From contig CAXXWS020000002.1 in NCBI GenBank assembly GCA_963665325.3, positions 512,001 through 576,000 on the forward strand: a stretch of 64,000 bases of DNA, written 5' to 3'. The notes under the pieces are model-generated. The model was not told where the DNA came from and ran no database searches. It saw only the letters and a list, made by a program, of their open reading frames with translations. The DNA is from Alphaproteobacteria bacterium. GTDB lineage: Bacteria; Pseudomonadota; Alphaproteobacteria; Bin95. Both the position numbers and the translations under genes were made by a program. This document shows positions 16,076 through 27,852 of the stretch, piece after piece (position 1 is the stretch's first letter; each line of letters opens with the position of its first letter).

Positions 16076-16470
16076 GACCCGTCCTCCCACACGCCGAACG
16101 TCGCCGGCAGGAGGCGGCACCAGCGCTCCAGCTCCTCTTCGCCGCAGATCTCCGGGCGCAGCGTCCTGACGGCCGAGCCGACCTCCGCCCGCTCCCGGTT
16201 CCACGCCCCGAGCTCCTTCTGCACCGCCAGAAGCCGGCGCATCCCGGCAACCTCGCGCGCCAGCGCCTCGCGGACCTTCAGGCCCTCGAGGCGCGTCGCC
16301 GCCCAGCCGTCCGGAGCCGCCGGCGTGTCCTGCTTCGGGGCGCTGTTCTGCGCGGGAGCCGTGTTCTCTGCCGGGACCGCGTCCTGCGCCGGGGCCGCAG
16401 ACGGCAACGCCATCGCGCCCGCCAGCGACAGCAGCGTTGCCAGACCCGAAATGCGCGCCGCCCTCAGCAT
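16072..16470 (-). CDS. Hypothetical secreted protein
   Basis: Signal peptide (APA-Q), Pro/Ala linker, helical region and two Cys. Confidence 0.65.
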   Translation of the reverse strand: MLRAARISGLATLLSLAGAMALPSAAPAQDAVPAENTAPAQNSAPKQDTPAAPDGWAATRLEGLKVREALAREVAGMRRLLAVQKELGAWNRERAEVGSAVRTLRPEICGEEELERWCRLLPATFGVWEDGS

Positions 16471-17540
16471 CCCTGGCAGCTCCCGACCGAGAGGGTCCCG
16501 AACGAGCCCGTGCCGGTCACCGATACAGACCCGGTGACGTCGGCGCCCGAGGCCGTGAGGTTGGCCTCGGCCTCGATATTCTCGGCCTCCACGTCGCCGG
16601 CGATATCGGCGCTCGCCGCCTCCAGCGCGCCCCTCGCCTCCACCTCGTCGGCATTGACCACGCCCGTGAACGCCGCATCGCCCCGGAACACCAGCCCGTC
16701 CGGCACCGTGAAACTCCCCATGACCTCGACCGATCCCGCCGTCGTCGCCGTGCCCACCGTCAGCGCCCGGTCGATCCGGAACTCGCCCGCCCGCATGACG
16801 CGGTCCACCTGCAGCTCCTCGGCCGTCAGCACCCGCACGCCCACCAGGTCGTTGTTGTTCATGTCGAGATCGGTCTCCATGCGCGCGGAGTCCGGACAGC
16901 CGGCGCGTACCCGCCGGAACACCGCGTCCCCGCACACGCTCTCCCGGTCGAGCTGCCGGTAGACGGCAAGCGCGCGGGCGCGCGGATGGCCGCCGGCCGC
17001 CGCCCGGAACGCGCCCAGGTCCTCCTGCACGGTCGGCCCGAGCAGCCGGCCCGCCGCGTCCACCACGCCGAGCGCCTGTGCGCCGCGCGCCTCGAAGACC
17101 GCATTCGCCGGAAAGCGCGTGTCGTTCGCATCCGCCAGCTGCATCGACAAGAGCCGGACATTGCCCCCGCCGAGCGAGACCGCCCAGGCCTGGAGCGGGC
17201 GCTTCATCGCGTCGCCCGCCTCGTCGAAGCCCTGCGGCAGCAGCCTGTCGGTCCTCAGCGCGCCGATATCGATCCGCCGCGCCGTCCCGGCCGCGAGCGC
17301 GGCATAGGTCCCGTATTCCGAGCGCACATGGCTCTCGACCGCCTGCGCCAGCACCACCAGCTTCCGCGCCGAGCCGACCGCGTTCGAGGCCGCGATGCGG
17401 CCCTGCAGCCAGATCGCGAAACCGAGCGCGATCACCACCAGCACGATCACCGCCACCAGCGCGCCCACAGGCGTCATGCCCCGCCAGCGCCCGATCCTGA
17501 GGCGCCGCGCGAACCCTGGTCTGCGCATGGGACCCCTCAT
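16464..17540 (-). CDS. PilV-like minor pilin/tip adhesin (paralog 2)
   Basis: Basic leader, RG|MTPVG hydrophobic helix, PilV N-domain motifs LLPQGF and RMETDLDMNNNDL; ends in CQGC. Confidence 0.8.
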   Translation of the reverse strand: MRGPMRRPGFARRLRIGRWRGMTPVGALVAVIVLVVIALGFAIWLQGRIAASNAVGSARKLVVLAQAVESHVRSEYGTYAALAAGTARRIDIGALRTDRLLPQGFDEAGDAMKRPLQAWAVSLGGGNVRLLSMQLADANDTRFPANAVFEARGAQALGVVDAAGRLLGPTVQEDLGAFRAAAGGHPRARALAVYRQLDRESVCGDAVFRRVRAGCPDSARMETDLDMNNNDLVGVRVLTAEELQVDRVMRAGEFRIDRALTVGTATTAGSVEVMGSFTVPDGLVFRGDAAFTGVVNADEVEARGALEAASADIAGDVEAENIEAEANLTASGADVTGSVSVTGTGSFGTLSVGSCQGC

Positions 17541-18781
17541 TGCACCACCGGCTCGCAGCCCGTGCAGCCGCCCGTCGTGACCGCACCGGTGAACGAGCCC
17601 GTATTCGCGCCGAGACCGCCGTCGATCCGCAGCCTCCGCGCCCGGGCATTGCCCGAGGCCTCGAGCCTGCCGCCGGCGTCCAGGCGCCCGGTCACATCCA
17701 GGCTGCCCGCGCCCGCTTTGCCCTCCACCGCCAGCGCCGTGTCCGTGGCAGTGAGCCCGGTGCCGACCGACAGCAGCTGCGGGATGTTGAAGGCCTGCGC
17801 CGGCGCGCCCGCATGGCCGAACCGGAACCCGCCATCCGCCCGGAACGCCGTCGCCGGAATGTCGCCCCCGAACGCCATGCTGCCGGGCTGGCCGGTCCGG
17901 CCCACGGTCACATTGCCGGCGACCTCAGCCGGCGTCCCGCCCGTCCCGGCAAAGCGGCCCTCCCGGTTGGTCCCCGCGTCGACCCCGGCGACGCTGCCGG
18001 CGTCCAGCACCCCGTAGCAGCGCCGGTCGTCCGCCAGCGCCGCATCCCGGCAGTCCTCGCCGGCGACGACCGCAACCGGGCTCTCGATCTCGGCCGCCGG
18101 CAGCAGCGCCTGGCCGACCGCGCCCGCGTTCGGGCCGAACACGAAATCCGTCTCCATGCGCGCAAGCTCGGGACGCCCGCCCACCGGCCGCCGGTAGAGC
18201 CGGTCCTCGTCGTGGCCCACCGCATGGTCCGCCGTTGCGAACAGCGAGCCCGCCGGCAAAGTCCCGAGCACCGCCCGGACCGCCGGCAGCCGGTCATGCA
18301 TCGCCGTCGCCTCGCCGCCGACCGCGCCGACAAGGTCGAGGCCGCCCATCACCGCGCCCGCCCTGAGCGCCGGCGCCCGGAACGAAAGCTCCGGGCCCGA
18401 GAGCGAGCAGGCCGCCATCGGAACGCTGTCGACCGTCACCGCGCCATAGGCAGCCGTCGCCACCGTGCCCCCGGCGCGACCGACCGTGCCGAGGCCGTCC
18501 GGGAGGAGGGACCAGCCCTTCAGCTGCGCCGGCGTCACGACACCCGCCGCCGTCACCCGGCCCGACTGGACCGCCCGGTGGACCGCCGTGCAGGTCATCG
18601 CCCAGATGCGCCCGCGCTCGCGGTCGATCTCCGCGAGCCGCAACTCCTCCTGCTGGCGCTCCCAGGCCGCCAGCACGACCACTACCGTCATGACCAGGAA
18701 CAGCGCGCCCACAGGCAGCGCCGCGCCGCGGCGCGCGCCCCGGCGAAGACGGCAGAACAGCGATGTCCCGAGGCGCGCCAC
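17537..18781 (-). CDS. PilV-like minor pilin/tip adhesin (paralog 1)
   Basis: RRG|AALPV leader, LLPDG, LYRRPVGGRPELARMETD; ends in CTGC. Confidence 0.78.
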   Translation of the reverse strand: MARLGTSLFCRLRRGARRGAALPVGALFLVMTVVVVLAAWERQQEELRLAEIDRERGRIWAMTCTAVHRAVQSGRVTAAGVVTPAQLKGWSLLPDGLGTVGRAGGTVATAAYGAVTVDSVPMAACSLSGPELSFRAPALRAGAVMGGLDLVGAVGGEATAMHDRLPAVRAVLGTLPAGSLFATADHAVGHDEDRLYRRPVGGRPELARMETDFVFGPNAGAVGQALLPAAEIESPVAVVAGEDCRDAALADDRRCYGVLDAGSVAGVDAGTNREGRFAGTGGTPAEVAGNVTVGRTGQPGSMAFGGDIPATAFRADGGFRFGHAGAPAQAFNIPQLLSVGTGLTATDTALAVEGKAGAGSLDVTGRLDAGGRLEASGNARARRLRIDGGLGANTGSFTGAVTTGGCTGCEPVVQ

Positions 18782-18784
18782 CGG

Positions 18785-19324
18785 TCACCCGAACACGAAG
18801 GTCAGGGCGTTGGACGCCGTGCCGTTGTCGCACTGGTTGTTGAGCCAGGTGACCGTGCGCGTCACCGGCGCGCCGGCATGCACCGCCGCCGGGGCGCTGC
18901 CGGCCACCTGCATCCGCACGATCCCCGAGCCCGCCCGCGTCCGGCCCACATAGGCCTGGCCCAGGTCCTTGCAGGTCTCGTCGTCCAGATCCGCGAACGT
19001 GATCGCGAACCGCCCGCCATTGCCCAGGATCGTCACCGCGCCGCCGAACGGATGACGGATCGTCGCCGACCCGCCCGTGCCCACCCGCGAGCCGTCCGGG
19101 ATCTTCCCGAACCCGGCCAGGATCGGCACAAGGTCGTCATTCGCGCTGTCGCCGTAGCTGGCCTGGCCCGAATAGATCCTCTCGACATTGGCGCGCAGCT
19201 GGTTCAGCAGCTCGACCGACTCGCCCTCGCTCAGCCGCGCCGTGATCCCGTTGTAGATCCCCACAACCGCGACGATCGCGAAGAGGCCCGCTACCACCGA
19301 CAGCAAGACTCCGATAGGGTTCAT
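18785..19324 (-). CDS. Type IVb major pilin (PilS-like), leaderless
   Basis: 179 aa with N-terminal hydrophobic helix, IYSGQASY, IRHPFGGAVTI, F.ITF..L...C and a C-terminal Cys before LTFVFG. Strong RBS. Confidence 0.88.
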   Translation of the reverse strand: MNPIGVLLSVVAGLFAIVAVVGIYNGITARLSEGESVELLNQLRANVERIYSGQASYGDSANDDLVPILAGFGKIPDGSRVGTGGSATIRHPFGGAVTILGNGGRFAITFADLDDETCKDLGQAYVGRTRAGSGIVRMQVAGSAPAAVHAGAPVTRTVTWLNNQCDNGTASNALTFVFG

Positions 19325-19336
19325 GTTCCCCTCCTC

Positions 19337-19869
19337 TCAGTAGCTTCGTTCCACCTGGGTCGAGATGTCGAAACTCACCCACATGATCAGGATCATCTGC
19401 GCCGTCCCGAGCGCCATCAGCACCGTGTTCAGAACCATGGTGCGCATCCGCATCATCGCCTCCGAGCGCTCCACCCAGCGCTCCACGAACCCGGCAAGCG
19501 TCTCTTCCCAGTCCGCGCGCCCGTCCATCGCGCCCGCAACCGCAACCAGCGTCTCGTCCGGGAATCCCTGGCGGGCCGCCGAGAGCGCCGAGCCGAACCC
19601 CAGACCCTCGTTCAGCATCAGCTCCCGAACCCGGCGCATCCGCGAGCGCACATAGGGCGAGGCGCCCCGCTCGAATTGCTCGAACGTGTCCCGGTTCAGG
19701 TCCACGCCCATGCGCAGGAACTCCACGCACACGAACAGGAACCCGCTCCCCGACAGCATCCGGTAGAGCGAAAAGGGCGGGATCCGGTCCGCGAACACGC
19801 GCCCCCGGCCGGTCCAGCGCAGCACCACGAGCCGGAACGCCGCCAGAAACAGCAGGAAGGCGAGCCCGA
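19337..19869 (-). pseudogene. PilR/T2SS-F platform protein, 3' fragment
   Basis: RWTGRGRVFADRIPPFSLYRML.GSGFL and GFPD motifs. Rejoins 24254-24793 in frame when the insertion is removed. Confidence 0.88.
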
Positions 19870-20115
19870 TGAGTGTGCTCTCGGTATCTGATGGCGGGAT
19901 GGTCACGTTGTTCGATGGTTTTCAGGCGTCGGGCCGGGCGTGACGGCGGGGGTGTCGGACGGCCGTCGGCGCGTCAAGCCGCTTCGCGGCTCCTGCGCTG
20001 CGCTCCGGCCCTTCGGGTGACCCGCCGCCGTCCCTCCGACGGAGTGCATCCATGGCCGTAAGCAAGCTTCCGGCCACGGGCCGGCCGCTTTACGCAGTGT
20101 GACAATGGGAGCGGT

Positions 20116-20176
20116 GTTACCCGTTACCGTTACCCTCTCTCCCTAGGGGTTCGAGGCGGTAACGGTTTTCGGTAAC
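20116..20176. repeat. Iteron-like inverted array: GTTACC x3, CCCTAGGG palindrome, GGTAAC x2
   Basis: GTTACC at 20116, 20123, 20129; CCCTAGGG at 20141-20148; GGTAAC at 20158 and 20171. Confidence 0.7.
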
Positions 20177-21141
20177 GTGTCCCTGCGGTCGTTGCCGTTG
20201 AGGGCGGCGAGGCGGTATCCGCCTTCGGATGCGCGCTCGACGCGTCCTTCGCGGACGAGCCTGTGCAGCGCCTCGGCGACGGTTGCGGGCCGGGTTGCCG
20301 CGCGCTCGCGGATCCGGCGCTGGGAGAGCGGCGCGTCGGCGTCGGCGAGGGCCTGCAGGATGCGCCGTTCGGGGGTATCCGGCTCCGGCGCCTGGTCTTC
20401 CGGCGTCTCGCGCAACCGCAGGGCGGGGCGCTCGTCGTCGTCGGCGAGTTCGATCTCGAGGTCTTCGAGGCCAGGGGCGTCGCGATGCTCGACGGTCATG
20501 AGGATCTGGCGGTCTCGCCGGCGCAGGTACAGATTCGAATCGCCCCAGGCGTGAAGTTCGCTGCTGCCGCGCAGCGCCTGCCCGGGCCGGGAGCCGCCGC
20601 TCTTTCGTGCGTGATGGACGAGGAGGACGGCGGTTTCGAAGCGGCGCTGTATGTCGCGCAGGAAGCCCAGCATGGGGGCGACCTCGGCGACGGTATTTTC
20701 GTCGACGCCGTGCAGGCGCACGAGGGGGTCGAGGACGACGAGGCGGGGTGAGACGCGCTCCACCGTCTCGACCAGGCGCTGGCGATCGGCGCGATGGTCG
20801 AGACGCAGCGTGGGCACGTCGATGACGGCGATGTCGAGGGTCTCGAACGCGGTGCCTGCCGCCTTTGCGATGCCCTGGAGGCGTGCGCGCACGATATGGC
20901 CGGCGTCCTCGGCGGCGAACAGCAGCACGGGGCCGCTTGCGGCGGGACGGAAGTGGCGCAGGCAGGGGACGCCGGCGGCGACCGCGACGGCGATGTCGAG
21001 TGCGAGGAAGGATTTGCCGCACTTGGGCTCGCCGCCGACGATGCCGACGCCCTGCTCGGACCACAACGCCTCGACCATCCAGCGGCGCGCCTGGGGGCGC
21101 TCTTCGAGCTCCGCCGGCGCCCGTGTCGGGAAGCCCTTCAC
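20143..21141 (-). CDS. AAA_25/RepA-like (RecA-fold) ATPase/helicase with C-terminal winged helix
   Basis: GEPKCGKSFLALD, AAED, LVVLDPL, LLVHHARK, LRGSS. GTG overlaps the upstream stop. Confidence 0.85.
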   Translation of the reverse strand: MKGFPTRAPAELEERPQARRWMVEALWSEQGVGIVGGEPKCGKSFLALDIAVAVAAGVPCLRHFRPAASGPVLLFAAEDAGHIVRARLQGIAKAAGTAFETLDIAVIDVPTLRLDHRADRQRLVETVERVSPRLVVLDPLVRLHGVDENTVAEVAPMLGFLRDIQRRFETAVLLVHHARKSGGSRPGQALRGSSELHAWGDSNLYLRRRDRQILMTVEHRDAPGLEDLEIELADDDERPALRLRETPEDQAPEPDTPERRILQALADADAPLSQRRIRERAATRPATVAEALHRLVREGRVERASEGGYRLAALNGNDRRDTLPKTVTASNP

Positions 21142-21971
21142 CGCCGCGCCCTCCTCGGCTTGGCGGGTTCGCCCAGGGTCTCGATGAAGAGCTTCTCGTC
21201 GAGGACCTCGCGCTCCTTCTCGGCGGCGGCGGCGAGCAGGGCGTCGGCCATGACGGTGAGCGCCCGCGGGTTGCCGTCGGCATGGGCGACCAGGGTGTCC
21301 TTGAGGCCCGCGGTCATGAGGCCGGGATTGCCGGCCTGCTCGATCAGATGGTCGAGCAGGGCCGCGAGGTCGCCGGCCTCGGCCTTGGTCATGACCAGGC
21401 GCTGGCGGATGCGCGAGGCGATGGGCTGCAGATCGGGCTGGCGGAGCTTGTCGAGCAGGCGCGTGTCGCCGGCGAGGACGACCGAGAGGATGGCGCGCGA
21501 GTCGAAGTCGGTCGAAGCCAGCAGGCGGATCTCGGAGAACACCGAGGGCAGCAGCTCCTGGGCCTCGTCGACGAGCACGACGGGGCGCATGCGGGTATCG
21601 TCGACATGGGCGAGCCAGCGCTCGCGCAGGCTTTTGAAGCTGGCCCAGCGGTTGTTGTACATCAGGTCGACGCCGAACATCTCGCCGATCTCGCGGTAGA
21701 AGTCGGACAGCCGGGAGGAGGGATGGGTGATGGCGGCGATGCTGAGCCCCTCGCAGCGGCCGAGACGGTCGGCGAGCAGGCGCAACGCCACACTCTTTCC
21801 GGCGCCGGGCTCGCCGGCGATCAAGGCGAAGCCGCCCTGGCGCACCAGGTGGCGCTCGATCCTGAGGCAGAAGCTGTCGACGGCAGGCGTCGCCATGAGA
21901 CTGTCGACCGGCAGGTCGGTGGCGAAGGGGTTCCACTTGAGCCCGTAGAAGGTGAGCAGTTCCCGGTTCAT
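21138..21971 (-). CDS. ExeA-like AAA+ ATPase (transposition helper)
   Basis: YGLKWNPF, GEPGAGKS, VLVDEAQ, VVLAG, GNPR. Confidence 0.9.
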   Translation of the reverse strand: MNRELLTFYGLKWNPFATDLPVDSLMATPAVDSFCLRIERHLVRQGGFALIAGEPGAGKSVALRLLADRLGRCEGLSIAAITHPSSRLSDFYREIGEMFGVDLMYNNRWASFKSLRERWLAHVDDTRMRPVVLVDEAQELLPSVFSEIRLLASTDFDSRAILSVVLAGDTRLLDKLRQPDLQPIASRIRQRLVMTKAEAGDLAALLDHLIEQAGNPGLMTAGLKDTLVAHADGNPRALTVMADALLAAAAEKEREVLDEKLFIETLGEPAKPRRARR

Positions 21972-23443
21972 GGCGCATCTCCCCGATCTTCGTCCTCGCC
22001 CGGACCGGGCGTCTTGTCATGGGGCAGCCAGGCCGGCGGCAGGCCGGTTGCGGCCTGGGCGTCGAGCATGCCCTTGAGCAGCGGCGGAAGTTCCCCCGTC
22101 CCCGCGCCGCCATTGCCATCGTTGCCGCCGGGGCCGGCGGGACGGCGCACGCCATCGGCGTTGCCGCGCTTGTCGAGGGGGTACAGCGTGCACAGGCGCT
22201 CGCCGCCTCGACCGTCGATCAGATCGACGCTGGCGAGGTTCCAGCGCGCGTAACGGATCCAGGCCTCGCGCAGGTGGCGCCACGGCTGTGGCACCTGGTA
22301 GCGGATGCCCTCGACCGAGACGGTGCCGTCCGAGCGCCTGAGCGTGCGCTTCCTGGTGATGCGGAAGGCCGCCTTGAGCTCGGCCGAGCCGGGGCAGGAT
22401 CTCGACGCGTCGACGCTCCCGGCCAGGCGTTGATGCGGCGTCATGCCGAGCTCGCGGTGCTTGCGGCGGTGATAGTCCTGCTCCAGCCAGGCGATGGTGG
22501 CGTCGTTGAGCATCTTCAAGGTAAGCGCGTCGACGCCTTCGAGCTGAGCCATCAGGCGCGATTCGACCGTGCCCCAGAACGACTCGATCTTGCCGTTCTG
22601 ATGGGGGCTGTAAGCGAGCGTCGTGACCCCCGCGATGCCGAGCCGGTGCAACCCCTCCTCGACCTCGCCCGCGGTCATCGCCGCGCCGTTGTCGGTCAGC
22701 AGGGACCTCGGCAGACCGCGCTTCATGAAGGCCTGGCAAAGGCCGTGGACGAACACCTCGGCGGTCTCGGCGAGGTACCACTGAAGGTGGCAGCCGAGGC
22801 GCGAGTGGTCGTCGAGGAAGCCGAGCAGGATCGGCGTCTTCCACTCGCCCGAGGCGGTCAGCACGCGACGCTTGGCGCTGTGCATGTCGGCGTGCCACAG
22901 GGCGTGAGAGCGCGAGACCTCGTAGCTCAATACCTCGCGGGCTTCGACCGCCGGCCTGGCCTCGCTCTCATGCCACTTGCGCCGGCGCTTGCGTACCAGC
23001 CCGCGAGCCCGCATCGCCCGGGTCAGCGTCGCGTAGGACGGTATCGGGCCGAGCTCGGGATCGGCCTCGACCCGCGCGGCCAGATTCTCGTGATGAAGCT
23101 GCGCCGACCACGACGGATGCGCCCGGTACTGCTCGTGCAGCGCCTCGATCAGCGTCGGCGACATCGCGCGCGGGCGCCCGGCATCGGCGCGCGGGCGCCG
23201 CTTGAGCGCCCCCACCGGATCGTTGTCCGCCGCCCGCGCCTGGTAGTACCAGCGCTCGATCGTGGACACCGCGAAGCGCACCCGGCCCTTGCCGGACGGG
23301 TGATCCCACTCGCGTTCGGCAAGCCGCTCAAGCTCGGCGTGCAGCCGCCCCGCCGGCGGCGGCGAGGCCAGAAGCGGCCCGACCACCGCGAAGCGCAACC
23401 GCGCCCACCGGTCGCGACGCTCGCTCCCGTCGTTGCTGTTCAT
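21968..23443 (-). CDS. DDE transposase/integrase (rve plus Mu C-terminal-like)
   Basis: HTH domains; catalytic triad WHAD / TDNG / NGKIE; RRSDGTVSVEG. Confidence 0.95.
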   Translation of the reverse strand: MNSNDGSERRDRWARLRFAVVGPLLASPPPAGRLHAELERLAEREWDHPSGKGRVRFAVSTIERWYYQARAADNDPVGALKRRPRADAGRPRAMSPTLIEALHEQYRAHPSWSAQLHHENLAARVEADPELGPIPSYATLTRAMRARGLVRKRRRKWHESEARPAVEAREVLSYEVSRSHALWHADMHSAKRRVLTASGEWKTPILLGFLDDHSRLGCHLQWYLAETAEVFVHGLCQAFMKRGLPRSLLTDNGAAMTAGEVEEGLHRLGIAGVTTLAYSPHQNGKIESFWGTVESRLMAQLEGVDALTLKMLNDATIAWLEQDYHRRKHRELGMTPHQRLAGSVDASRSCPGSAELKAAFRITRKRTLRRSDGTVSVEGIRYQVPQPWRHLREAWIRYARWNLASVDLIDGRGGERLCTLYPLDKRGNADGVRRPAGPGGNDGNGGAGTGELPPLLKGMLDAQAATGLPPAWLPHDKTPGPGEDEDRGDAP

Positions 23444-23491
23444 TCCGGCATCCCCCTCGCTGCTTCGTGGAGGTGCCGATGATGCGGTGCC

Positions 23492-24106
23492 CTATCCGTG
23501 CATCATAGAAACGCTTTCTGCGGGCGAAGCCGGACCTGCGCCGAGCGCGCAAAAGCCGGTCCACGGCATCAGCCAGACCAGGCTCCGCAGCAGCCGCGAG
23601 CGGAAGCCACGGCCCCGCATGATGCGCAGCAGCCGGCGCAGCGGCGCCTCTTCGGGCGGCGCCGCCAGCTCGCCCCGTCTCGCCTGCCACTCCCGGGTCA
23701 GCGGGAAGGCTTCCAGCCACCAGCGCCGCCAGCGCTTCAGCGTCGAGGCCGGAACCCCGCACCGCCGCGCGATCGTCTGCAACCGCGCGCCGCCGGCCAC
23801 AGCCAGCGCACTCACCACAAGGAACAGCGCCCCGACGTAAAAGCGCCTGCCGAAGAAACGCACCGACGGCGGCTTCACGCGGCGTCGGCACACCGAACAG
23901 CACAGGCTGAAGCGCCGAACGTCGTTCCGAAGATTCGCCGCCAGACCGTGCGGCTTGCGCGGGTAGCTCGCGCTGTGAAGCGCGCCGCCGCAGCGCGGGC
24001 AACCCGCCGCCCGGCACGCCTCCGCCTCGGCCGCGTCGACCTGCTTCAGAAAATCCCAAACCCGGGCGTTGGAGAGATTGGAGTGCCGGAACAGCTTGTG
24101 CGACAT
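23492..24106 (-). CDS. Zn-ribbon plus HTH transposon-associated protein (DUF6431-like)
   Basis: CPRCGG..H..YPRKP and RFSLCCSVCRRR..PPSVRF; STLKRWRRWW. Confidence 0.75.
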   Translation of the reverse strand: MSHKLFRHSNLSNARVWDFLKQVDAAEAEACRAAGCPRCGGALHSASYPRKPHGLAANLRNDVRRFSLCCSVCRRRVKPPSVRFFGRRFYVGALFLVVSALAVAGGARLQTIARRCGVPASTLKRWRRWWLEAFPLTREWQARRGELAAPPEEAPLRRLLRIMRGRGFRSRLLRSLVWLMPWTGFCALGAGPASPAESVSMMHG

Positions 24107-24253
24107 TGGGGCCGTCTCAGGTTGATGTCACTGTCACCGAGACAAGCCCTCCGGCGGCCTTCTTGCAAGATCGCCGGGGGGCACCCAATCCAAAACCTCG
24201 ATTAATCCGAGCCGATCAGCCCCTGATCGCCGCTGAAAGCCTGCGCCCGCTCA

Positions 24254-24793
24254 CCCGATCTCGATATCGTTCGCGTAGAAACCCTCCGAGACCCAGGCGA
24301 ACGAGCGCGACCAGATATCCCAGCGCGACCGGTCGCTCACCTCCAGCATCGCCGGAATGACCTCGTAGCCCATGAACCAGGTCATGCCGATGCAGCCCAC
24401 GAAGATCACCAGCGGCAGAAACATCGCGCTCGCCACCGCGCGCACCTGCTTCGAGCGCATCTCCGCGACGCGCGCCGCCGCCAGGAACAGAACCTCAGCC
24501 CGCGCCCGGCCGAGCCCGTAGAAGATCATCGCCTCCGAGGCCGGAACCCAGCGCGACAGCTCCACCGCGAAATCGTCCCCGCCGCCCGCAAGCGCCGCCT
24601 GCCAGTCCCGAAGCATCCGCACCCGGATCGTCTCGCGCGACTTCGCCTGCATCACCACGCCGAGCGCCTCGCGCAGACCAAGCCCGCCCTGGAGCAGGTC
24701 GTGCAGCAGATACCAGATGTCGATCCGCGCCTCCGTCCCCGCCGCCAGGAACCGCCGCACCGGAAACCAGACCGCCCCCCAGAGACGCCTCAT
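24254..24793 (-). pseudogene. PilR/T2SS-F platform protein, 5' fragment
   Basis: LLQGGLGLREAL, WVPASEAMI and a TM segment. Ends at a TGA supplied by the transposon end. Confidence 0.88.
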
Positions 24794-26481
24794 TCCACCG
24801 CCTCCGCGCCCGCGACCAGCACCGGCTTGCCCGGCGCGGGCGCGGCGCCGGCATGACCCGGCCCGTCCTCCACCCGGCCTTCGCCCGGAGGCCCGAACGC
24901 CGCCTTCGCCACGGCGATCTCCGCGCCCTTCAGCATCGCGTCCGCCGGATCGACCCGGCCCTTGCCGACCGCGCCCCAGATCTTCCGTCCGATCGGGACC
25001 CCGCCCATCGCGCCCGTCCAGTGGTTCCACGCGCCCACCGCATCCCGCTTCTGGACGAACCTGAGATAGCCGTCGTCCGGGACGATCCACTCCGCCACCG
25101 CAAGCGGGCGCACATAGCCCGCCCACGCCGCCAGCGAGAGCGCCGACTGGCCCGCCGTCCGGCAACCGGCGCAGCCCTCCGGATTGCGGTAGCGGACCTC
25201 CGGGCCCAGCAGCGCCGCCAGCTCCTCCGGGAGGTCCCGGCCCTCCGGCAGAACCGGCAGCGCGCAGGACGGGCAGAGCAGCGGCACCAGCGTCTGCTTC
25301 ATCAGGAGGCGCACATTGCCGGGCTTGGTCACCTCCGACACCTCGACGCCGAGGTCCATCAGCCGGAACAGGATGCCGTTCGCCGTGTGCACGTGGATTG
25401 TCGTCCACACCTGGTGGCCCGAGTCGATGAACTGCAGCACCTGCTGCGCGCCCATCTTGTCGCGGATCTCGCCCACCATCCCCGAGGCCGGATGCACCCG
25501 CACGAAATGCATCAGCGCGGCTGCAAACCCGAGCCCCCGCTCCTCGCCGATGCCCCGGGTCGGAACCGCAATCTGCACCGCGCCGGGTATGTCGTATTCG
25601 ACCGGGTCCTCCAGCGTGATCATGTTGAGCTTCCCGCCATGCTCACGCATCTGGAGGTTCAGGTTCACCGCAAGCGTCGTCGACTTGCCGTCGCCCGTCG
25701 TCCCGCCGATGAAGATGCCGCCGTATTTCGACATCCGGATCTCGCGGAACAGGCCCGCCACCTCCGCCGTGAAGCCCAGGTCCTCCAGCGTCTGCCGGCC
25801 CCCGACCTGGTCGCGGTAGAAAAGCCGCATGTAGAGGTGGTGGCCCTCCGGCTCGTGCGGACCCGCCTCGCAGCGCAGCGCCGCGATCTCCTCCGGAAGC
25901 GGGAACGTCTCCGAGCGCCTCACGCTGAAACCCTGGAAGCTCGCACGCTGCAGCGAGGTCTGCCGCGAGCCTTCGTCCTTCACGAAGAACAGGAACCCGA
26001 ACACCTGCTCCGCCTCCCGCACCGTCATCGCAGAACCCAGGGGCAGCTTGCGGTCGTTCACGATCGCGAACACCCGGCAGTCGTCCGGGCCCTTCTCCAG
26101 CACCACGTCCGAAGCCCGGGCCCGGGCCGCCTCCGTGAAGATCGCGACAAGCCCCTCCACGATCCGCGGGTTCACGTCCAGGCTCTCGTCACGGACCCGG
26201 TTGCCGCGCCAGACCTCCGCCACCTCCTGGAGCGAGGCCGTCTCCTCCCGGAACTGGCCCCGGACCGCGCCCGTGCGCTGCAACTCCACCAGCAGCGCGC
26301 GCAGCTCCACGTCGTTCGCATAGCCGTCCGCGATCAGCACGCGCCCGTCCGACCAGACCGCGCAGCGCTCCCGGAAGCGCTCGTCCATCCGCTCCCAGCG
26401 CAACAGGCCCGACGGCATCACCTCCGGAGGTCGCTCCTTGAACATGAGGCGGCCCCACCATGTGTCCCGCCAGCCCGTCAT
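24790..26481 (-). CDS. PilQ/PulE-family pilus assembly ATPase
   Basis: GTTGDGKST, TLEDPVEY, MVGEIRD, GHQVWTTIH, tetra-Cys LCPSC..GCAGC. Confidence 0.93.
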   Translation of the reverse strand: MTGWRDTWWGRLMFKERPPEVMPSGLLRWERMDERFRERCAVWSDGRVLIADGYANDVELRALLVELQRTGAVRGQFREETASLQEVAEVWRGNRVRDESLDVNPRIVEGLVAIFTEAARARASDVVLEKGPDDCRVFAIVNDRKLPLGSAMTVREAEQVFGFLFFVKDEGSRQTSLQRASFQGFSVRRSETFPLPEEIAALRCEAGPHEPEGHHLYMRLFYRDQVGGRQTLEDLGFTAEVAGLFREIRMSKYGGIFIGGTTGDGKSTTLAVNLNLQMREHGGKLNMITLEDPVEYDIPGAVQIAVPTRGIGEERGLGFAAALMHFVRVHPASGMVGEIRDKMGAQQVLQFIDSGHQVWTTIHVHTANGILFRLMDLGVEVSEVTKPGNVRLLMKQTLVPLLCPSCALPVLPEGRDLPEELAALLGPEVRYRNPEGCAGCRTAGQSALSLAAWAGYVRPLAVAEWIVPDDGYLRFVQKRDAVGAWNHWTGAMGGVPIGRKIWGAVGKGRVDPADAMLKGAEIAVAKAAFGPPGEGRVEDGPGHAGAAPAPGKPVLVAGAEAVE

Positions 26482-27413
26482 CGCCCGGACCTCGACCGGT
26501 AGGGGAGGTGCGGGCTCGTCCAGCCCTTCACGCGAACGCCCGGAGGACGCGCCTCGACCGAGACCACCCTCACGCCGCCCGGCAAGCGGTCGCCGGCCTC
26601 CACCCGCCAGACGTTCTCGCCGTCCGTCACCGCCGCGCGCAGCGCCTCGCCCGATCCCATCACCGCGAACCAGCCATAGGCGCGGGGCGGCTCGGGAGGC
26701 GGCGCCTTCTTCTCTTCCTTCGGCGCCGTCCTGGCCGCCTCGGCGGCCGCCTTCGCCTGCTGCTCGCGCACGATCTCCGCCCGCGCCGCCTCCAGCATCG
26801 CCGCATGCGCGCCGCGAACCCGCGCATCCGCCTCGCGGCGCGCCGTCTCCAGCTTCAGGGCTTCCGCCGCCCTCGCGGCCGCAGACTTGTTCAACGCCGC
26901 CGCCAGCTCGATCTCCGAGCCCACAAGCTCCTTCAGGATCGCCTGACGGTCCCGGCACAGCACCAGAACCTCGCGCTCCAGCTCCAGAGCCTCGCTGAAC
27001 TGGCCCTCGTTCACCGCGCTCGACAGCATCCGCACGATCGCCTCGCGCGGACACTCGAAGGTCCGCAATATCGCCGGCTCGTAAGCGATAACCGGAGGAC
27101 CGGAAGGAGAAGCCGGGGCGGCAGGGGGAGGATCGGCCTGCCGCCCCGGCAGACCGGCAGCGGCCGCAGCCGCCCCGCCCGCACGCCGCCCCGGCGCGCC
27201 GGCAGCGGACGGGGCGGCCACAGTACCCGCCGCCGCCGGTGTTGGTTGAAGATCGTCGCCCGCGCCGGACGGCTCCGATGCAGGCCTGAACTCCGGAGCC
27301 GGAGTCTTGATCGACGACCCGTCGGGGTCCTGCGCCGAGACCTCGCCGAACGACAGCACCGCCACCGACAGCGCGACCGCCGACAGCAGGAGACCGCGAC
27401 GGAGGCCGGCCAC
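26478..27413 (-). CDS. PilP-like type IVb pilus biogenesis protein
   Basis: Signal peptide, coiled coil, C-terminal VMGSGEALRA..V.AGDRLPGGVRV. Lies directly before PilQ. Confidence 0.7.
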   Translation of the reverse strand: MAGLRRGLLLSAVALSVAVLSFGEVSAQDPDGSSIKTPAPEFRPASEPSGAGDDLQPTPAAAGTVAAPSAAGAPGRRAGGAAAAAAGLPGRQADPPPAAPASPSGPPVIAYEPAILRTFECPREAIVRMLSSAVNEGQFSEALELEREVLVLCRDRQAILKELVGSEIELAAALNKSAAARAAEALKLETARREADARVRGAHAAMLEAARAEIVREQQAKAAAEAARTAPKEEKKAPPPEPPRAYGWFAVMGSGEALRAAVTDGENVWRVEAGDRLPGGVRVVSVEARPPGVRVKGWTSPHLPYRSRSGR

Positions 27414-27459
27414 GAAGGCTCCATTTGCCCCGCATCCCGAAACCGGGCAGGCTCCACCC

Positions 27460-27852
27460 GTGGCAAAATCGCCCCTCGATCTGGCCGGCATCGCCAAGGC
27501 GCTCGAAGACGCCGGAATGGAACCGGACGATGCCAGGGCCGCAGCCATGCGCGTGCGCGCCGGCGCCACCGCGAACCCTCCCGGATACCACCTCGATATC
27601 CGGGACCGGAAACTCCGCAACGAGCTCATCGAAGCCGTCGCCGAAACCGGGAGGCATATCGACCGTAGCGAAGGACGAATCCTCGAACGCTTCTCGGAGA
27701 TCGAACGTCGGCACATCGACGCCTCAGCGCGCCATCTCGACGCCGTCGAATACCGCCTCGGAAAACGCCTCGCCCGGCTCGTCTGGATGCTGTTCGCAGC
27801 CCTCGCGGCAATCCTCGCCGTCGCAGCAGCCGCGCTCCGATATCTGGACTGA
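27460..27852 (+). CDS. DUF1640/CCDC90-like coiled-coil protein with C-terminal TM (copy 1)
   Basis: LD..AKALEDAGM..ARA head, coiled-coil stalk, C-terminal hydrophobic anchor. Confidence 0.7.
   Translation: MAKSPLDLAGIAKALEDAGMEPDDARAAAMRVRAGATANPPGYHLDIRDRKLRNELIEAVAETGRHIDRSEGRILERFSEIERRHIDASARHLDAVEYRLGKRLARLVWMLFAALAAILAVAAAALRYLD

Follow-up and report, generated by a model that had tools for sequence, protein, structure and literature searches.

Several bacterial transposons pair a DDE transposase with an AAA+ ATPase that acts on target DNA, as is the case for phage Mu (MuA/MuB), Tn7, Tn5053 and the type V-K CRISPR-associated transposons (CASTs; TnsB/TnsC, TniA/TniB). For Mu, TnsA-less Tn7 and V-K CASTs, the strand-transfer intermediate must be replicated, and Mu is the only replicative DDE transposon whose means of acquiring a replication fork, namely remodelling of the transpososome and use of the host restart primosome, are known in detail. 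To our knowledge, no helicase is encoded by Mu, Tn7, Tn5053 or V-K CASTs. Here, we describe a 4384-bp transposon that carries, directly behind such a DDE/AAA+ pair, a gene for a predicted RepA-type helicase. It lies at positions 19870–24253 of a 64 000-nt stretch of an alphaproteobacterial assembly (GCA_963665325.3, contig CAXXWS020000002.1, forward-strand positions 512,001–576,000; hereafter the window), and its four genes, all on the minus strand, are enclosed by TG..CA ends.

The three-gene core of this element is of the type of Tn6049 from Cupriavidus metallidurans CH34. In the available portions of two reports, Tn6049 is given as a 3.5-kb element with 12 copies in CH34, an ATPase gene called ‘gspA’ and a frequent association with genomic islands (PMC2864759), bounded by 12-bp imperfect terminal repeats beginning TGTGC and by 4-bp direct repeats (PMC4739549). 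Its first three genes are found in the window element in the same order and with overlapping stop and start codons. When Tn6049 and a relative on a plasmid of Paraburkholderia phytofirmans PsJN are compared with the window element, the first open reading frames (ORFs; 181 and 189 amino acids (aa) in the Tn6049-type elements) are 39–47% identical, the DDE transposases 50% (464–472 aa) and the ATPases 52–53%; Tn6049 is also located on the Pseudomonas aeruginosa plasmid pHS87a. Both elements have TG..CA ends with short imperfect repeats, and their duplications measure 4–6 bp here (5 bp being the commonest, in 10 of 24 copies) versus 4 bp for Tn6049 in the portion of PMC4739549 available. The difference resides in the fourth slot: Tn6049 possesses a 71-aa ORF and no AAA_25 gene, whereas the window element, 4384 bp long against 3.5 kb, has the AAA_25 gene and no counterpart of the 71-aa ORFs.

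On these alignments, the element is a member of the Tn6049 family, which is already named yet unstudied. The original prediction for this locus had left room for a described family with the same layout, and for the three-gene core such a family does exist; what is new is the helicase cassette only. Full-text literature searches, the scope of which did not extend to subscription papers, ISfinder and TnCentral, returned no paper in which a RepA-like helicase, its repeat array or its primases are described for a DDE/AAA+ transposon.

A predicted replicative helicase in the fourth slot

The last gene of the element encodes an AAA_25 ATPase with a C-terminal winged helix (table 1). By sequence, its only significant relative of solved structure is the hexameric replicative helicase RepA of RSF1010 (1g8y, 2.4e-8), to which it aligns motif by motif (Walker A, AED, LDxxxRxHxxxEN, HHxxK and RGSS). 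In alignments of 29 and 34 members, 36–51% identical to the window's protein, the Walker A Lys and the AED, LDP, DEN, HHxxK and RGSS motifs are invariant. The AlphaFold model considered here is that of a family member, P0260, 43% identical to the window's protein. With a predicted local distance difference test (pLDDT) score of 91.2, it shows a three-helix winged helix behind a RecA-type core, and its top Foldseek matches are the RepA entries 1olo, 1nlf and 1g8y (E approx. 1e-13, template modelling (TM) score 0.72–0.75), then DnaB helicases. In PHROG, the window's protein matches primase-helicases as well as helicases of the DnaB-like kind, and PADLOC retrieved no relevant defence family, the match to an AbiEi winged helix being weak (E 0.002). 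The fourth gene would then encode an RSF1010 RepA-type (DnaB-class) ATPase fused to a winged helix, with a predicted helicase function; its RepA-like character, as proposed in the original prediction, is borne out both by the sequence match and by the fold of the P0260 model.

The resemblance extends to other parts of the RSF1010 set (RepA helicase, RepB′ primase, RepC initiator and oriV iterons). RepA is the best match in sequence as well as in fold, repeat arrays adjoin the helicase gene, and primase genes lie downstream of it in relatives. On the other hand, the window element lacks a RepC-like initiator; it is chromosomal, with 24 copies accompanied by duplications; and its helicase and origin activities are predicted from sequence. 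No close relative of the helicase is present in PLSDB, which gave only four matches at 27–31% identity, and DNA and protein searches of the same plasmids retrieved Tn6049-like cores only; viral contigs yielded just four distant helicase matches. The fusion itself has a parallel in the phage P4 alpha primase-helicase, in which a DNA-binding (origin-binding) domain is likewise joined to a helicase.

The transposition genes

The two genes directly upstream encode a DDE/AAA+ pair of the Mu/Tn7 kind, as their profile matches indicate and as had been proposed for them. The transposase matches the Mu-like PHROG family phrog_310 (2.4e-40); its matches to the Pfam families rve, rve_3 and HTH_32 fall below Pfam's own cut-offs, and among NCBIfam models it is nearest to IS481 (NF033577, 8.4e-36), with 123.9 bits, below the curated cut-off of 224. 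The RefSeq label of the Tn6049 enzyme is ‘IS481 family transposase’. As for the ATPase, it matches phrog_296, ‘DNA transposition protein’ (1.4e-23), and when its profile (alignment A3) is compared with PDB sequences MuB comes first (8xvb, 8e-14), followed by ShTnsC (5.7e-10) and VchTnsC (4.7e-7). The DDE and AAA_22 genes overlap by ATGA and the AAA_22 and AAA_25 genes by GTGA, a gap of 48 nt separating the first gene, for a zinc-ribbon and helix-turn-helix (Zn/HTH) protein, from the DDE gene.

The element resembles Mu, Tn7, Tn5053 and the V-K CASTs by its TG..CA ends, its duplications mostly of 5 bp and the Mu-like PHROG families matched by both of its proteins, whereas its transposase is nearer to IS481 than to MuA or TnsB. 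Neither TnsA (as in Tn7) nor a resolvase (as in Tn5053), and no TniQ/TnsD or phage gene, was matched by the four ORFs in Pfam and NCBIfam. IS481 is a single-gene insertion sequence (IS), whereas four genes are present here. In IS21, a DDE enzyme, IstA, is also assisted by an AAA+ helper, the DnaC-like IstB, but the AAA_22 ATPase of the window has no IstB_IS21 match and its DDE transposase stands apart from IstA with 100% support.

The Zn/HTH protein is conserved together with this transposition core. The suggestion that it selects targets received no backing from the searches made: Pfam gave no TniQ/TnsD match, its profile found nothing significant among PDB sequences (AlpA being the best, at E 0.065), and the AlphaFold2 model, of poor quality (pLDDT 63.9, confident only at residues ~10–85), had no Foldseek match in PDB at E ≤ 0.001, only weak zinc-ribbon rows being returned.

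Co-inheritance of the helicase and transposition genes

Two sets of 80 loci document the association from either side. In loci selected by their DDE transposase (64–92% identity, mostly multi-copy in long-read alphaproteobacterial metagenome-assembled genomes (MAGs)), a whole AAA_25 gene directly follows the ATPase gene in 64 cases; it is partial or displaced in 13 and missing from three, all of which have a truncated transposase or ATPase gene. In loci selected by the helicase (41–57% identical to the window's protein, found with a 9-row alignment subset), DDE and AAA_22 genes lie directly upstream on the same strand in 67 cases, AAA_22 only in eight, mostly at contig ends, and an IS21-type pair (IstA and IstB_IS21) in three. 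Overall, 78 of these 80 helicase genes directly follow a DDE and/or AAA+ transposition gene; one of the other two adjoins a large serine recombinase gene and two ParB-like genes, and one is cut by a contig start.

The IS21-type loci (L134:1558-4820, L189:975-4180 and L160) comprise IstA (rve and Mu-transpos_C_2), IstB_IS21, the AAA_25/winged-helix gene and a hexamer array. At L125:2659-6963, helicase gene and array are located downstream of the large serine recombinase and the two ParB/RepB-like genes.

The helicase family is large (489 clusters at 50% identity, E below 1e-30). Records of the helicase-selected set are labelled as Planctomycetota, Acidobacteriota, Myxococcota, Gemmatimonadota, Actinomycetota, Elusimicrobiota, Pseudomonadota and others; many are short contigs, possibly mis-binned, and long contigs support at least four phyla (Pseudomonadota, Planctomycetota, Myxococcota and Acidobacteriota). 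On a tree of 93 helicases, the nine transposase-clade labels require 10 changes, close to the minimum of eight and far from the shuffled mean of 44.8, indicating that the helicase gene mostly descends with its backbone. These sequence data support the view of the helicase gene as an integral, co-diverging module and not as sporadic cargo.

The transposase tree also bears on Tn6049. The window element and Tn6049 belong to the same 48-row clade (100% support), inside which Tn6049 and the PsJN relative group with a helicase-bearing element (99% support); all other members of the clade with a readable fourth slot carry the helicase, one row being a cut contig. Since Tn6049 is nested among helicase-bearing elements, its position points to a loss or replacement of the helicase in the Tn6049 branch. 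The 71-aa ORFs in the fourth slot (L011:3433-3648 in Tn6049 and L012:3718-3933 in the PsJN relative) have no Pfam match and mutually dissimilar sequences, and both finish with an acidic stretch and a Phe (DLADNDF and SIDEPF, respectively).

Repeats and primase genes beside the helicase gene

An inverted array of hexamers marks the end of the helicase gene, its centre, CCCTAGGG, spanning the AAA_25 stop codon. The same layout recurs in relatives with GTTCCC/GGGAAC or similar hexamers, both arms co-varying. Of 88 loci, 33 have a strict array pattern close to the stop codon, versus 1 of 1719 control windows; the best inverted repeat near the stop has hexamer arms in 52/88 loci, with spacers mostly of 13–25 nt, and arms of at least 16 nt were recorded in 34/88 loci versus 3/88 control windows. 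Arrays of this kind were seen in Tn6049-like, distant and IS21-type backbones as well as beside the serine recombinase. We regard the array as a candidate for the site at which the winged-helix helicase binds or is loaded.

Between the array and the nearer element end lies a hairpin-rich 159-nt motif, which may act as DNA or as RNA. The 3′ tail of the element folds better than shuffled sequences (z-scores of −2.95 for DNA and −3.77 for RNA), and compensatory changes affect 5 of the 51 predicted pairs of the motif among six sequences. Within four-gene lineages the motif is full in five and partial in two. None of the seven primase-bearing lineages has it in full (one weak partial match of 63 nt), nor did an nhmmer run find it in Tn6049 or the PsJN relative, Tn6049 not having been searched otherwise for motif or array.

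Primases of two unrelated types, judging from their domains, accompany the helicase gene in some relatives. In seven close-relative lineages, with elements of 5.2–5.3 kb, a DUF3991 and Toprim gene stands fifth, after the array; in three distant elements (L109, L182 and L191), a DnaG-type primase gene (CHC2 finger and Toprim) is found downstream of the helicase gene.

A possible role in starting replication

With a DDE transposase, a MuB/TnsC-like ATPase and neither TnsA nor resolvase, the element can be expected to form a strand-transfer intermediate in need of replication. Our best reading, which we hold to be about evenly poised between right and wrong, is that its fourth gene belongs to a replication-start cassette tied to transposition. 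This cassette would consist of the RepA-type ATPase with its winged helix, of its presumed binding site (the hexamer array) and, in this copy, of the hairpin-rich motif. Guided by its winged helix, the helicase would be brought to the DNA of the element itself, the array and the forks of the strand-transfer intermediate being the two possible sites, and the AAA+ ATPase could load it as DnaC loads DnaB; a complex prediction for AAA_22 and AAA_25 (alignments A3 and A4) gave ‘no answer’ (score 0.00), which speaks neither for nor against such loading. Primers might be made by a primase that the element encodes, or else by the host at the hairpin motif. In this way, the replication needed by a DDE/AAA+ element devoid of TnsA and resolvase would start without the host restart primosome. 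SSB uses its acidic tip to recruit PriA, among other host proteins; the 71-aa protein of Tn6049, with its SSB-like acidic tail in the same slot, may recruit host machinery instead, and the fourth slot would then always deal with the acquisition of a replisome.

Self-synthesizing transposons (casposons and Polintons) and IEE offer other examples in which a mobile element, or its excision, is tied to dedicated replication proteins. Casposons and Polintons differ by their recombinases (Cas1, or a retroviral-type integrase with PolB), and the window element encodes no polymerase. IEE, a PrimPol-helicase acting on copy-out-paste-in IS (10.1101/2023.06.07.543989), is host- or island-encoded, outside the IS.

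A number of observations weigh against the replication-start reading. Within the protein, the Gly preceding the Walker A Lys is variable in the helicase family (PKxxK[ST]). At the level of DNA, the depth of the element contig in run X1 (~580–600), divided by a single-copy flank depth of 26, gives ~22–23, which equals the assembled copy number and so provides no sign of extra copies; likewise, no joint from 24253 to 19870 was found in the contigs of runs X1, X3, X4 and X9, contigs being prone to drop rare forms, and a single internal joint, from 24039 to 20971, appeared at a low depth of 2.36 with seven extra letters. In the original prediction, the helicase was put forward as a possible driver of replicative transposition or of a circular form; these contigs contain neither an end joint nor excess depth.

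Other points concern the distribution of the gene. Tn6049, which has no helicase gene, still reached 12 copies in CH34 (PMC2864759). In one Paracoccaceae-labelled MAG (L082–L088), the helicase gene is cut after residue ~166–193, at the same breakpoint in all seven loci; the broken form seems to have multiplied there, possibly with help in trans. Past this breakpoint, the seven loci contain other repeated DNA in differing order and orientation. The helicase is dispensable in some lineages, namely Tn6049 and the lineage with seven of seven genes cut; that the gene is not sporadic is supported by the 64/80 and 67/80 loci and by the co-divergence in the tree. Moreover, the distant loci were chosen by the helicase itself, so that helicase-less lineages between them cannot be counted; of 400 genomes of the phylum sampled by way of the DDE transposase, eight matched, one being Tn6049 and the others lying on 2.5–4 kb contigs that end before the fourth slot. 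Finally, the cassette can change partners. Two elements of one MAG (L076:1-2500 and L063:8600-11470 versus the L052-type element) have ATPases only 27% identical and helicases 83% identical, with the 159-nt motif in common (E 3e-42), which indicates an exchange of the cassette between backbones; and its occurrence beside a serine recombinase (L125) means that it is not tied to DDE chemistry.

A different function for the same parts is conceivable, namely that the array serves as an operator for the winged helix while the RecA-fold ATPase senses DNA structures such as forks or single strands, the protein steering or limiting insertion in a TnsE-, TniQ- or immunity-like manner with no unwinding for replication. 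The array does overlap the 3′ end of its own gene and the start of the downstream, possibly regulatory, region. Insertions are also clustered, 7 of the 24 copies lying inside one 120-kb stretch of contig C1 (a value reached by 4 of 20 000 random placements) and three more within 66 kb around the pilus region of the window, and a frequent link of Tn6049 to genomic islands is noted in the available portion of PMC2864759. However, island clustering can reflect insertion tolerance, and no replication-linked orientation rule emerged when insertions were compared with the GC skew of the five contigs, which is weak and tracks gene strand. A choice of targets would leave the recruitment of two unrelated primase types unexplained, and all RepA catalytic motifs are invariant in a protein with the fold of hexameric replicative helicases. 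Such a regulator or target chooser appears unlikely to us.

Less probable again is an autonomous replicon, the ‘replication-competent transposon’ of the original prediction, in which the element would excise as a circle and replicate like a plasmid from the hexamer array, by means of its initiator-helicase and of its own or a host primase, thereby multiplying the transposition intermediate. A point in its favour is that the intermediates used by relatives in the IS3, IS481 and IS21 groups are circular or tandem. The same intermediates are described for copy-out-paste-in IS in the available part of 10.1101/2023.06.07.543989. The layout is that of an initiator-helicase, with a winged-helix fusion beside inverted repeat arrays around a short spacer, primases are added in relatives, and RepA of RSF1010 is the nearest solved protein. 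Yet contig depth matches 24 chromosomal copies and four runs are devoid of an end joint, both being weak points since drawn from contigs only; stand-alone contigs of relatives begin and end at the element ends, unpermuted; neither partition nor copy-control genes are encoded; and the few plasmid and viral matches cited above are all distant.

The least credible alternative is a hitch-hiking cassette, helicase and array forming a module, selfish or accessory, with no role in transposition (serving, for instance, in defence against phages, in addiction or in the repair of host DNA), for although exchange between backbones, presence beside a serine recombinase, loss in Tn6049 and breakage in one spreading lineage would all suit it, the gene keeps a fixed place immediately behind the AAA+ gene, whose stop codon overlaps its start, co-diverges with the backbone, follows a DDE and/or AAA+ gene in 78/80 helicase-selected loci and has no PADLOC defence family beyond the weak AbiEi winged-helix match.

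Beyond the replication-start cassette itself, we tentatively consider, as a rather doubtful extension, that these elements are transposon–replicon hybrids. They would represent a widespread, undescribed class of DDE elements endowed with a minimal origin (the hexamer array), an initiator-helicase and, for some, a primase, and would replicate their own DNA in situ or as circles for insertion; in the Tn6049 branch, a small SSB-tail protein that borrows the host restart primosome would have taken the place of this cassette.

Boundaries, copies and insertion sites

On the plus strand, the element begins TGAGTGTG and finishes GCTCA. The left boundary reads ...GCGAG CCCGA|TGAGTGTGC... (19865–19870) and the right boundary ...CCCGCTCA|CCCGA TCTCG... 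(24253–24258), so that the flanking direct repeat CCCGA measures 5 bp, or 6 bp when the first T of the element is included. Terminal inverted repeats are weak: the ungapped identity of the ends is 4/4, 8/12, 12/20 and 15/30, and the gapped score was matched by 118 of 500 shuffles; they are clearer in relatives (11/12 and 12/12). A search for repeats across the element returned chance-like GC-rich matches but no long repeat family, whether terminal or internal, and Rfam, over 19800–24320, no family at E ≤ 1. The plus-strand GC skew ranges from +0.03 to +0.19 inside the element (window 19750–22500) and from −0.1 to −0.25 in both flanks; the sign is opposite although the genes of the element share the minus strand with those of the flanks, and the composition of the element is therefore foreign to its surroundings.

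Table 1. Features of the transposon and of its insertion site (positions in the window).
Feature	Position	Strand	Basis
Whole transposon, 4384 bp	19870..24253	-	24 copies with the same boundaries; contigs of other runs stop at both ends
Target-site duplication, copy 1, CCCGA	19865..19869		sequence and duplication survey
Target-site duplication, copy 2, CCCGA	24254..24258		sequence and duplication survey
End on the 3′ side of the genes, TGAGTGTGCTC...	19870..19935		subterminal TCTGATGGCGGG and TTCGATGG blocks common to relatives
End upstream of the genes, reverse complement TGAGCGGGCGCAGGCTTTCAGCGGCGATCAGGGG...	24194..24253		end comparison with relatives
Hairpin-rich 159-nt motif, DNA or RNA	19949..20107	-	conserved in four-gene relatives and in an element with a different backbone
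Inverted hexamer array	20116..20176		GTTACC x3 (20116-20134), CCCTAGGG, GGTAAC x2 (20158-20176)
AAA_25 RepA-like ATPase (residues ~1-215) with C-terminal winged helix (~255-310), 332 aa	20143..21141	-	AAA_25 5.5e-36; GTG start overlaps the AAA_22 stop
MuB/TnsC/ExeA-like AAA+ ATPase, 277 aa	21138..21971	-	AAA_22 5e-20
DDE (rve/HTH_32) transposase, IS481/Mu-like, 491 aa	21968..23443	-	50% identical to Tn6049 TnpA
Cys4 zinc-ribbon and HTH protein, 204 aa	23492..24106	-	HTH_23 3.4e-6; four conserved Cys; homologue of the first ORF of Tn6049
Disrupted host gene, downstream half	19337..19869	-	between PilQ-like T2SSE ATPase gene and PilS prepilin gene
Disrupted host gene, upstream half	24254..25408	-	paralogue on contig C1 is one continuous ORF across the site

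The genome searched (five contigs, 5.58 Mb) harbours 24 copies with identical boundaries, 23 of them full-length and one split. Twenty-one are identical in sequence, one has a 1-nt deletion within a G run of the transposase gene, and another a 1-nt deletion in the 5′ untranslated part. Exact duplications of 5 bp flank 10 copies, of 4 bp eight and of 6 bp two; the remaining four copies have no exact flanking repeat, two of them matching at four of five positions. In contigs from three other public runs, the match to the element ends precisely at 19870 or 24253 and different flanks follow, and in one sponge-metagenome contig 19864 is joined to 24254, i.e. the site is empty. The element is a mobile, active transposon that has undergone a recent burst to 24 copies. 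The outline given in the original prediction holds throughout: a delimited element having TG..CA ends with a 5-bp duplication and weak terminal repeats, and four genes of which the last three are coupled.

Two further loci of the same genome are modified. The split copy (G000:C1:2290596-2297053, locus L208) is interrupted by a 2070-bp IS with a CTAG duplication and terminal repeats CCCAAGTTTAAC.../...GTTAAACTTGGG; this IS entered the hexamer array at its central CTAG, where the AAA_25 gene has its stop codon. Locus L209 (G000:C1:446362-452348) is the remnant of a related element (81–86% identity), in which the last 43 nt of the gene-upstream end are fused to the C-terminal 44 codons of an AAA_25 gene; ~5.7 kb of other DNA follows, then ~100 nt of 3′ tail, and the break, at element position 263/264, is located beside the same array centre.

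In the window, the interrupted gene belongs to a type IVb (R64/integrative and conjugative element-like) conjugative-pilus cluster (16464–19324 and 24790–27714), which contains the T2SSE (PilQ-like) ATPase and PilS prepilin genes, then those of two proteins with a shufflon N-terminal region. Its C1 paralogue is uninterrupted at the insertion site (...GFYANDIEIGLAFLLFL...). Segments of the pilus region are paralogous to C1:1.97–2.00 Mb (87–97% identity, ~14 kb aligned), itself part of the 120-kb stretch with seven copies.

Significance

If the replication-start reading is true, these elements would represent a second solution to the acquisition of forks, the element bringing its own fork-starting machinery. 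This would account for the bursts of 20–30 identical copies seen here and in related MAGs, bursts by which assemblies are fragmented and genes inactivated, the conjugative-pilus gene of the window being one example. It would also offer a function for hundreds of unnamed ‘AAA family ATPase’ clusters, and with an element of 4.4 kb the question of fork acquisition becomes directly testable. Altogether, the association of such a transposon with a helicase gene is widespread in uncultured bacteria, a hint that these elements may contribute to starting replication of their own DNA.

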